Positions 24,552 to 26,722 of a stretch of DNA of 64,000 nt are shown piece by piece (the stretch's first letter is position 1; each line of letters starts with the position of its first letter). The notes beneath the pieces are model-generated. The model saw nothing but the letters and a program-made list of their open reading frames with translations. It was not told the DNA's origin and did no database searches. Position numbers and translations under genes: made by a program. The stretch is from Candidatus Thorarchaeota archaeon (GTDB lineage Archaea > Asgardarchaeota > Thorarchaeia > Thorarchaeales > Thorarchaeaceae): the NCBI GenBank assembly GCA_003345595.1, contig PRDI01000129.1, positions 1 to 64,000 on the forward strand, written 5' to 3'.

Positions 24552-25307
24552 TTACAGCTCATCAGACTCGTCATCATCGCAAGAACAGTGCGAGTGTTCT
24601 GCTGATGGCTCCCAATCATAGAAACCTCTGATATGACCTAATCCTCGCATGGCTCTTGACACTTTGTCGCTGACCATGGGACCAATTTCTCGAAGCCATT
24701 CAAGATCCGGAATCTTATCACGCCCGAGCACAATTGCTCGGCCGTCCTGACGTCTGATAACTATCCCAGACTTGCTGACTGAAACAGAGCGACCTTCGCC
24801 GTCGATAAAGACTCTCTTGTCTTGCACGAAAGCAAGACTCTCTGGCTTAGTGGCGATGACCACAGACCTGTCGTCTTCTGTGGTTCCGAGAAGAACGGAA
24901 CTGCTTCGGCCCTTGACCACAATCTTGTGACCGTCTTCGAGATGCTTCTCGACAACTGAACGCACTTCGTTCAGGAAAGCGGCTGCATCATTGTACCCAA
25001 ACCTTCCAAGGAAGTCTGCGGTCGACGGCTGAGAAGCCTTCTCTACTTCCGTCTTTCCGAGATAGATCTGGACACCCTTGAGGGCAGATGACTTGGTTTG
25101 TCCTACGGCTCCCTTTGAGGTCTCAACTATTGCATCAACGATGTAACGGGATGGACCTGCGAACGCAACTCCGACCCGTTCGCCATTGTCTGTCAGATAG
25201 ACCCACGCACAGCCTGCATCAAGCCTGACAACCGCTTTCTCATGGGAGAGAATGTCAAATGGTGCATTTGTGGTCATTACAGTTTCTTCAGGCTTTATGT
25301 TTCTCAC
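24552..25307 (-). CDS. Hypothetical beta-rich protein, translationally coupled to the ArsR-like regulator
   Basis: 251 aa, 4-nt overlap with the upstream stop; H/C/D-rich tail HSHCSCDDDE. Confidence 0.7.
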   Translation of the reverse strand: MRNIKPEETVMTTNAPFDILSHEKAVVRLDAGCAWVYLTDNGERVGVAFAGPSRYIVDAIVETSKGAVGQTKSSALKGVQIYLGKTEVEKASQPSTADFLGRFGYNDAAAFLNEVRSVVEKHLEDGHKIVVKGRSSSVLLGTTEDDRSVVIATKPESLAFVQDKRVFIDGEGRSVSVSKSGIVIRRQDGRAIVLGRDKIPDLEWLREIGPMVSDKVSRAMRGLGHIRGFYDWEPSAEHSHCSCDDDESDEL

Positions 25308-26020
25308 TGTACATCAGCTCCTTCCTTGTTCTTGTCTGCTTCCTCATCAAAGGACACACTAACCTGGCCCTCTCCACTACTGCCAGTCCGAGACCGTTGC
25401 CACTCCACTCTGCTTGTCAACCACTGGGCAAGACGGTATGCTAGGCGACCTGCGACAGTGATATAGTATGTGCCTCTGACCTCACCCTTAATCACATATC
25501 CGGCATCCATCAATGGTGTCAGATGGTGGGTCAATGAGCTGCCAGTCTTCCCTGTGAGCGTTTCGAGCTCATTGAACGACTTGCCGCCGTCTTTCAGAAT
25601 GTCAAGTATTCTGAGACGTTCTTCGCTGCCCAAAGGACTCACCGCTTGTGCAACGCGCTCGGCTGGGATGTTCTCGATTCTTCCCCGGCCATGCTTGCCC
25701 ATTCTTCTGATCATGAATCGCGGTGACTCCAGACTGACTCCGATATCGCCTACCTCTCGGACAGCTTTGCGTATCTGCTCTCCCAGTCCCTCCATCATCT
25801 CATCAAGACCATCAGTGATACTGCTCAAATCAACGAAGTGCGAATCTGGCGGAATGCAAGGCTCGGGAGGCCCGTGCGCTCTGTGACCTCCTCTGAAACG
25901 GCCTTCTTCGGCATAGGCTTCTCTTTCCTTGCGAAGACGTTCGACGTCTTCCTTCAGACTCTCTTTGAGCTTGCGCACTTCTTCGAGTTCTTTGCGAATA
26001 TCGTCTAGGTTCTCGGTCAT
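25304..26020 (-). CDS. ArsR-family winged-helix regulator with an N-terminal coiled coil
   Basis: LGSEERLRILDIL.DGGKSFNELE...G..GSSLTHHL..L..AGYV..RGTYYIT; heptad-rich residues 5-35; GGTGAGG SD. Confidence 0.85.
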   Translation of the reverse strand: MTENLDDIRKELEEVRKLKESLKEDVERLRKEREAYAEEGRFRGGHRAHGPPEPCIPPDSHFVDLSSITDGLDEMMEGLGEQIRKAVREVGDIGVSLESPRFMIRRMGKHGRGRIENIPAERVAQAVSPLGSEERLRILDILKDGGKSFNELETLTGKTGSSLTHHLTPLMDAGYVIKGEVRGTYYITVAGRLAYRLAQWLTSRVEWQRSRTGSSGEGQVSVSFDEEADKNKEGADVQ

Positions 26021-26100
26021 TATTCCTCACCATTTGTACAGTACAGTCATGCACCCGTAAGTCGTAGGTTTCGCTGGAGTTGTAAGAAATGGAGCCTCTC

Positions 26101-26247
26101 TCAGACTACAAGAGAGCCTCTGAATCGGCGCTCTTCTCCAGAGGTTTCTCTTTCCCTGTGGAGGCGTCTAATCTCCTCTCTCAGGGTTTGATTGAGTCTG
26201 CGCACTTCTTCCAGCTCTTTGCGAATGTCGTCTGAACTCGCGGTCAT
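26101..26247 (-). CDS. 48-aa coiled-coil protein paralogous to the N-terminus of the downstream regulator (not in the ORF track)
   Basis: MTASSDDIRKELEEVRRLNQTLREEIRRLHRERETSGEERRFRGSLVV. 27/44 identical to regulator residues 1-44, with no indels and nine synonymous codon differences. Confidence 0.7.
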   Translation of the reverse strand: MTASSDDIRKELEEVRRLNQTLREEIRRLHRERETSGEERRFRGSLVV

Positions 26248-26262
26248 TCTGGACACTGAGCC

Positions 26263-26288
26263 TACTGTACATTTCTACACTTATAAAT
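26263..26288 (-). promoter_or_regulatory. TATA box and TGTACAGTA motif upstream of the small ORF/ArsR operon
   Basis: Minus-strand ATTTATAA at 26288-26281. TACTGTACA at 26263-26271 is the exact inverse of TGTACAGTA at 26035-26043. Confidence 0.55.
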
Positions 26289-26449
26289 CTTCGGTTCTAT
26301 TACAGTCGGCAGAGGCAATCCTCACTCGTACCGAGAATGGCTACAAGAGACTCCCGACCTAATCCTAGTGTTTCGACCGGAATTGCGGTAAAGACGACGC
26401 TTATTATTCTCCATGGGGTGTACCTAATACTGGAAGTGAGCGTGCAAGC

Positions 26450-26722
26450 TTGTTCGAGGAGGACAGAGGCCCGGGGTACTGCTTGTGTTTTGTAATGAGC
26501 ATGCTTCCGATACTCGGCTTGTTCCTGCTTGCTCTTCCTCAACTGCCAGTCAGTGAACTGCCCTCTGTTGCCGTGCTGCTATTCCTAGTCTTCGCGCCGC
26601 TCTATGGTTGTGGAGATCTATTCAAGGGGCGGCCAATGTTCCAGTGGCACTATCACGGTGTCGAAACCGAGGTCATGGAAGAACTGGCCAAGGAAGTGGA
26701 CAGCCGTTCCTCAGCCATTTGA
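26450..26722 (+). CDS. Small membrane protein
   Basis: 90 aa with two hydrophobic segments. Confidence 0.5.
   Translation: MFEEDRGPGYCLCFVMSMLPILGLFLLALPQLPVSELPSVAVLLFLVFAPLYGCGDLFKGRPMFQWHYHGVETEVMEELAKEVDSRSSAI

Follow-up and report, generated by a model that had tools for sequence, protein, structure and literature searches.

SinI of Bacillus subtilis is a 57-aa paralogue of the SinR oligomerisation region that is encoded by an adjacent gene and lacks a DNA-binding domain; it is under separate Spo0A control, and formation of the structurally solved heterodimer abolishes DNA binding (PMC3163267). H-NST of pathogenic E. coli is a homologue truncated to the N-terminal dimerisation/oligomerisation domain, and it antagonises the full-length protein, probably via heterodimers (PMC7074111). 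A trans-microProtein has been defined as a protein of <140 aa with a single putative interaction domain and homology to a larger multidomain protein, in a survey whose main text does not contain the words prokaryote, bacteria, or archaea (PMC5381583). Our literature search found no archaeal report of such a domain-only antagonist.

The window analyzed here, a 64,000-nucleotide stretch of a Candidatus Thorarchaeota genome (G000), carries a 48-codon ORF that copies the N-terminal coil of the regulator gene downstream. Its size and homology are those of a trans-microProtein (<140 aa, one domain in its own frame, effector domain gone). A sequence-only reading of this DNA named plant LITTLE ZIPPER and animal Id proteins as analogues, and these share with the small ORF a small size, a single putative interaction domain, a separate frame, and homology to a larger transcription factor. 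However, both are long conserved and separately transcribed, and no bHLH or HD-ZIP homology is claimed here; the bacterial proteins are closer. As with SinI and SinR, a small adjacent gene is paralogous to the putative oligomerisation region of a regulator; core hydrophobic residues are conserved between the bacterial pair and, at the heptad d positions, between the two proteins here. The SinI-SinR interface is the C-terminal two-helix hook of an XRE-type repressor, whereas predicted binding at this locus would involve the N-terminal heptad helix of an ArsR-type protein, one promoter appears to drive both genes, and the copy is young and limited to one species pair. H-NST is also an N-terminal-only version of a larger protein, but it is island-borne, horizontally spread, unlinked to hns, and about twice as long, and its target is a nucleoid protein with a proven N-terminal dimer interface. 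Archaeal leader and coupled cistrons (PMC6728339) resemble this locus in placing a short first cistron ahead of a gene that has a Shine-Dalgarno-like site of its own; they differ in that the leader here is a partial copy of the gene that follows it and ends 80 nt before the next start.

A leader ORF born by duplication of the regulator's 5' end

The parent gene encodes a 238-aa ArsR-type winged-helix regulator (window 25304 to 26020, minus strand). Its HTH_5 match (residues 133 to 178, E = 1.3e-7) scores 31.8 bits against a Pfam cutoff of 22, placing the protein in the ArsR/SmtB family. In the AlphaFold model, which is of a monomer, an N-terminal heptad helix (residues 3 to 42) is followed by a disordered or low-confidence linker, an amphipathic helix (66 to 91), a winged helix-turn-helix domain (120 to 212), and an acidic tail, and the closest folds are SrnR, CzrA, SqrR, and HlyU (E about 1e-3). 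The regulator is like these proteins in its HTH_5 domain and fold at residues about 120 to 212 and in the palindrome adjoining its TATA box; it differs in about 110 extra N-terminal residues, which hold the conserved heptad helix and the amphipathic helix. Orthologues occur in nearly all family genomes, and the named homologues come from Candidatus Thorarchaeota. Long acidic N-terminal extensions lie in frame ahead of the coil in many orthologues (L019, L021, L025, L026, L028, L059, L071, and L074), so the N-terminal end of this gene has been repeatedly remodelled. In one genome (G003:C8:81094-81772, L008), a frameshift near residue 70 separates the regulator into coil-only and HTH-only parts; because the cluster relatives P0131 and P0132 read through the frameshift point, this split is probably an assembly error or a private lesion.

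A family-wide partner gene for a 251-aa beta-rich protein (24552 to 25307, minus strand) overlaps the regulator stop by GTGA, an arrangement resembling described termination-reinitiation pairs (PMC6728339), and it lies beside the regulator in 40 of 41 genomes. The model of this protein (pLDDT 78) contains two beta-sheet modules and a C-terminal helix; there was no Pfam match and no clear PDB match. A likeness to Polo-box domains (Foldseek E about 5e-3, TM about 0.2) was unsupported by a wide fold search, in which the best matches were mixed beta-sheet proteins with Z scores of up to 5.7. An Atlas search returned no usable match. By eye, the C-terminal helix resembles regulator helix 66 to 91. 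Divergent from the regulator's promoter, a hydrophobic ORF of 90 to 100 aa (26450 to 26722, plus strand) lies between that promoter and an M54 peptidase gene; it is called in several relatives, and its 5' end differs among alleles.

The small ORF (26247 to 26101, minus strand) consists of 48 codons and a TGA. Its alignment to regulator residues 1 to 44 is gapless, with 27 of 44 amino acids and 97 of 132 nucleotides identical, nine codons differing only synonymously, and 17 replacements, so the counts given in the sequence-only reading are all correct. Within G000, the pair match with a tblastn E value of 4e-12, and the same search of the genome returned no third copy of the coil. Also borne out were the claims that the peptide has no DNA-binding domain (Pfam finds HTH_5 in the regulator and none in the small ORF) and that it heads the operon, being the first ORF 3' of a TTTATAA box that ends about 35 nt before its start. 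All five known alleles have an identical start, stop, and length, with zero lesions. A run of regulatory codons or a terminator match was not found in the leader.

Alignment to close relatives shows that the small ORF was born by head-to-tail duplication of about 225 nt, extending from roughly −90 to codon 45 of the regulator. In an unduplicated relative (L031 and L044 to L046), whose regulator is 90% identical, the promoter sits directly on the regulator and there is no small ORF, and the last 95 nt before the regulator start align, in the duplicated genomes, to the 3' end of the small ORF and the 80-nt spacer behind it. The alignment of spacer to promoter has P ≤ 0.001 against 2,000 shuffles, with 39 of 61 positions identical without gaps in the relatives. 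Copy 1 kept the promoter, and its ORF (26101 to 26247) comprises regulator codons 1 to 45 and three read-through codons in duplicated upstream DNA, where it stops at a TGA; in copy 2 the promoter was lost and the complete regulator gene remained. The small-ORF alleles group together in one clade and the regulator alleles in another, at 100% support. The sequence-only reading had set a partial duplication remnant against a functional module. Duplication is the demonstrated origin, so those two ideas are not mutually exclusive, and the copy has not evolved neutrally (dN/dS about 0.3, see below).

Several other explanations of the arrangement were rejected. An assembly artefact is ruled out by the 26% divergence between the copies and by the presence of the same arrangement in G001 and in more than 10 independent metagenome contigs. 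A frameshifted N-terminal repeat of one long protein is ruled out by the relatives, whose long frames are acidic extensions with no second coil, and by a copy period of 226 to 227 nt, which is not a multiple of three. Nor is the small ORF a truncated full-length paralogue, because duplicated promoter DNA begins after codon 45; no relative carries, at this place, the full-length second regulator that the sequence-only reading would have taken as the mark of a pseudogene. Constraint imposed by an overlapping antisense ORF is also ruled out, as the matching antisense frame holds a stop in G000.

The putative live promoter (26281 to 26306, minus strand) contains a half-site, ACTGTA (26306 to 26301), a BRE-like ACCGAA (26295 to 26290), and a TATA box, TTTATAA (26287 to 26281); its function is predicted from the archaeal promoter consensus, and its layout matches that upstream of the regulator across the family. 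Just 3' of the TATA box, a TGTA-N6-TACA palindrome (26264 to 26281, minus strand) precedes the regulator at all 34 related loci compared and is probably the regulator's autoregulatory operator. A regulon scan of G000 found no second clear strong palindrome site. The two 9-mers described earlier as an inverted pair bracketing the small ORF exist (26263 to 26271 and 26035 to 26043), but they pair perfectly in this genome alone. The first lies within the palindrome as its right half, and the second is a decayed duplicate of the same half that became a perfect match here through a one-base insertion and lacks the terminal match in every other allele. As a functional bracket, the pair is ruled out by the allele comparison and the 34-locus palindrome survey.

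The spacer (26021 to 26100, minus strand) is the decayed second promoter copy, with mutations in the TATA box, the BRE-like element, and each half of the operator; it differs from the unduplicated promoter at 21 to 22 of 61 positions, and the live copy at 9 to 11 of 61. A ribosome-binding-like GGTGA (26031 to 26027), one base off an ancestral GGTAA, precedes the regulator start in all alleles. The distance from small-ORF stop to regulator start is 79 to 80 nt, leaving no overlap of the termination-reinitiation type, and no conserved structure was found over the regulator start. As judged from these elements, the small ORF and regulator would share a single intact promoter, with no separate control. 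An 8-bp inverted repeat within small-ORF codons 34 to 45 (26115 to 26146, minus strand) was inherited from the parent gene, and its 3' arm is the duplication end; the repeat may have caused the slippage. Folding scores for it are weak in this genome (z = −1.3) and range from −2.2 to −3.8 in other alleles, with one compensated pair among alleles, and another window of the gene scores −3.4. Regulator codons 35 to 46 (25885 to 25920) have diverged fast in this genome only, and the inverted repeat is lost from its regulator while still present in the small ORF and in other alleles.

Selection on the small ORF and its coil

Comparison of paralogues cannot assign selection to the small ORF, and orthologous alleles were used instead. 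Between G000 and G001, the small ORF has 8 synonymous and 4 replacement changes. In a codon model of 12 sequences, dN/dS on the small-ORF branches was 0.30 (95% interval about 0.15 to 0.6; P = 0.0007 against 1), and in the small-ORF crown only it was 0.33 (P = 0.03), compared with 0.22 for the same codons in the regulator. The sequence-only reading would have counted a ratio near 1 against its proposed switch. With the worst-case rooting, in which half of the stem is assigned to the regulator, P was 0.007 to 0.011, and the ratio stayed under 1 whichever of the tried rootings and frequency models was used. A ratio of 0.7 was rejected (P = 0.02 to 0.035; P = 0.035 for coil codons). Coil codons 2 to 32 gave 0.30 to 0.40 (P = 0.003 to 0.01 against 1), looser than the value of 0.14 for the regulator coil (P = 0.05). 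The most conserved part of the small ORF was codons 33 to 45 (dN/dS of 0.10), which lie beyond the conserved coil and overlap the inverted repeat. These values come from 44 codons, five related alleles, a recombining population, and a tree fixed by the analyst.

The decayed promoter provides a twin control from the same event. Relative to the unduplicated haplotype, small-ORF replacement sites differ by 13 to 15%, synonymous sites by 29 to 34%, and the dead promoter by 34 to 36%; replacement sites differ from the dead copy (Fisher P = 0.001 to 0.003), and synonymous sites match it. In neutral simulations, 23 to 51% of small ORFs survived without a stop, and 6 to 30% when the start was also kept, so the open frame alone is uninformative. 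These comparisons show amino-acid-level purifying selection on the small ORF, weaker than that on the parent coil.

The residues that changed do not point to one explanation. In the heptad register, a positions are 5, 12, 19, 26, and 33, and d positions are 8, 15, 22, and 29. The peptide keeps its d residues (Ile8, Val15, Leu22, and Leu29, with Phe at position 29 in G001). It also keeps two g-e pairs of the kind typical of parallel dimers, Glu11-Arg16 and Glu25-His30, and it is altered at a positions 5 (Leu5Ser) and 19 (Asn19). Lys19 is invariant in 86 of 86 homologues, and all small-ORF alleles have Asn there; Leu5Ser, Glu27Arg, and the single-allele changes Glu14Lys or Glu20Gln are absent or nearly so in the family. 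The 10 most conserved columns take 3 of the 18 small-ORF replacements, about as many as expected by chance; for regulator alleles, it is 1 of 13. This pattern fits relaxed constraint or specialisation alike. A complex prediction for the peptide with regulator residues 1 to 95 scored 0.09 against a mark of 0.32, with controls that did not fold, and is evidence neither way.

Distribution of the copy and leaders in other genera

Of the 86 family genomes searched, G000 and G001 alone gave a second match to the coil, and the leader copy is present in 2 of 72 family genomes that have promoter and regulator in view, again the one species pair; broad conservation was not seen among those 72. Metagenome contigs supplied three further alleles of the G001 species complex, each encoding 48 aa with the same stop. 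A search of 5.8 billion proteins for stand-alone coil copies returned one cluster, from the same species pair, and a search of 1.84 billion representatives returned one real match, also from this pair, plus a generic repeat protein; both searches are insensitive, having also missed the leader of genus g7 described below.

Over most of its flanks, the unduplicated haplotype is 1 to 5% divergent from the G001 group. In L044 and L031, a recombination block that spans about −700 to +500 relative to the regulator start is 11 to 25% divergent and carries the unduplicated promoter. Duplicated and unduplicated haplotypes co-occur in one lake-sediment sample (JGI 3300031999). Because G000 is the outgroup and has the ORF, its loss from the unduplicated lineage, through import of a block without the duplication, is the most likely history; alternatively, an old polymorphism persists. 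Under either history, the small ORF is dispensable. Absence from relatives had been named as evidence against the switch, and here the outcome is divided: the copy is confined to one species pair and missing from a co-occurring close lineage, but it is intact in all five alleles.

Genus g7 has a coil-derived leader of its own. In 3 of 3 genomes (G024, G033, and G009; L011:rc, L010:rc, and L014:rc, and L095:1051-1194), a 47-codon ORF occupies the usual start position and ends 15 nt before the regulator TTG. Its homology to the N-terminal end of the regulator is in exact register (P = 5e-5 to 4.5e-4 in shuffle tests), and shifted registers all score lower. The g7 duplication unit is 159 nt, unlike the unit of about 225 nt here, and the present copy carries lineage-specific residues of its own parent and cannot have come from the g7 leader, from which we infer that the g7 event was independent. 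Start, stop, and exact length are kept in three species, which neutral simulation reproduces, with the frame open, in ≤0.1% of runs, while dN/dS is 0.69 and not different from 1 (P = 0.22). The G024 leader retains the hydrophobic core and Lys19, though synonymous divergence of the regulator exceeds 1.1; in the other two, the core holds Ser, Gly, Pro, His, or Thr and the coil is lost. A joint codon model of g7 leader and regulator was saturated, and the coil-keeping branch was not distinguishable from the others (P = 0.6).

Shorter leaders were seen elsewhere. Genus g10 (L072 and L075; G026 and G012) has a conserved 36-aa leader that lies between the palindrome and the start of the regulator and does not clearly resemble the coil; its stop overlaps a GGAGG site just ahead of the regulator ATG. 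In G002 (L003), an 18-codon ORF overlaps the regulator start, and in G015 (L016), a 146-nt regulator leader may contain a broken coil remnant, which is not significant. Together, the g7, g10, and G002 leaders indicate that leader ORFs recur at this regulator operon and that the open frame outlasts the coil.

Possible roles of the leader and their meaning

The small ORF is real, more than a remnant and less than the switch claimed for it, and it cannot yet be filed as a microProtein. Our preferred reading, held tentatively and at somewhat less than an even chance, is that it is a leader gene of recent origin that is translated, and that its coil, still under selection, may buffer the parent regulator. 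We infer translation of the ORF along with a role in cis and one in trans. In cis, the small ORF would take over the short-leader start that formerly belonged to the regulator, and the regulator would be translated as a second cistron from the GGTGA site. In trans, the heptad face of the peptide would bind the N-terminal coil of the regulator and so sequester a fraction of that protein. With one transcript under the regulator's own palindrome, this would act as a fixed-ratio buffer or a threshold in an autoregulatory loop, rather than as an inducible switch. Probably the trans role is optional, and it could vanish while the open frame persists. ArsR/SmtB cores dimerise via their own helices, and DNA binding may therefore depend on an interface other than the coil; the peptide may instead affect higher-order assembly or partner binding.

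The peptide itself might be irrelevant, with selection acting on the start, the open frame, and the stop position, perhaps also on the hairpin, so that the leader sets downstream regulator translation or protects the transcript while the coil is being lost. We place this on the doubtful side of the scale. Such a role in cis would explain why the small ORF is the first ORF after the promoter with conserved frame and ends both here and in g7, where start, stop, and length persist at a dN/dS of 0.69 with the coil gone in two of three species; the 36-aa g10 and 18-aa G002 leaders likewise recur without a coil, and translational coupling of cistrons is documented in archaea (PMC6728339). What argues for the peptide is that coil codons here are more constrained than at the g7 level (0.7 rejected, P = 0.035), and a purely cis mechanism also has to contend with a stop 80 nt from the regulator start, too far for the overlap-type termination-reinitiation of PMC6728339, and with the failure to find a conserved structure over that start. 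Improbable by comparison is a slowly decaying remnant with no selected role, its apparent constraint arising from small numbers, from recombination or gene conversion with the parent, or from weak selection against a harmful translated product. The presence of the copy in 2 of 72 genomes, its loss or original absence in the co-occurring lineage, the neutral survival of such frames (23 to 51%, or 6 to 30% with the start), and substitutions that do not avoid conserved columns would all be expected of a remnant. The ratio below 1 under all rootings and frequency models tried, and the separate clades of small-ORF and regulator alleles at 100% support, would not, and gene conversion would not leave synonymous sites as diverged as the dead promoter while sparing replacement sites.

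A partner other than the regulator could also be the peptide's target. Several family-invariant coil residues (Glu11, Glu14, Arg16, Lys19, and Glu20) are charged and form an invariant surface outside the hydrophobic core; this surface might bind a third protein that the peptide titrates, perhaps the 251-aa protein, whose gene is coupled to the regulator family-wide, or a protease or adaptor, in which case regulator activity could rise rather than fall. The peptide has altered exactly such residues, Lys19 in all alleles and Glu14 or Glu20 in single alleles, and we regard this decoy as a long shot. In the other direction, the most far-reaching proposal is that the same Asgard regulator has given rise to dominant-negative coiled-coil microProteins on two or more independent occasions, through tandem duplications that included the promoter, with the younger one here still functional and the unduplicated state alongside it, which we consider unlikely. 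The dominant-negative switch of the sequence-only reading survives in that a putative dimerisation-type segment without a DNA-binding domain is intact and selected; the promoter that it appears to share with its putative target would preclude independent control. As a conserved regulatory module, the idea fares less well, since Lys19 (86 of 86 homologues) is lost along with Glu14 in one allele, and the older g7 copy has lost its coil in two of three species.

The feature is minor and dispensable, the lineage that carries it is uncultured, and the concept has bacterial examples already. The origin of antagonists such as SinI, Id, and LITTLE ZIPPER has usually been inferred from old, fixed cases. 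At the Thorarchaeota locus, several stages are visible in sequence: an unduplicated haplotype, a recent duplicate whose second promoter is dead and whose peptide is under selection, and, from a separate and older event, a duplicate that has kept its coil in one species and only the open frame in two. If the dominant-negative reading were true, these would form a natural before-and-after series for the birth and decay of microProteins, and if the peptide does bind the regulator, the locus would provide an archaeal example of control by a domain-only antagonist. If it does not, the duplications would still show that the 5' end of a gene can repeatedly give rise to a leader ORF ahead of that gene.
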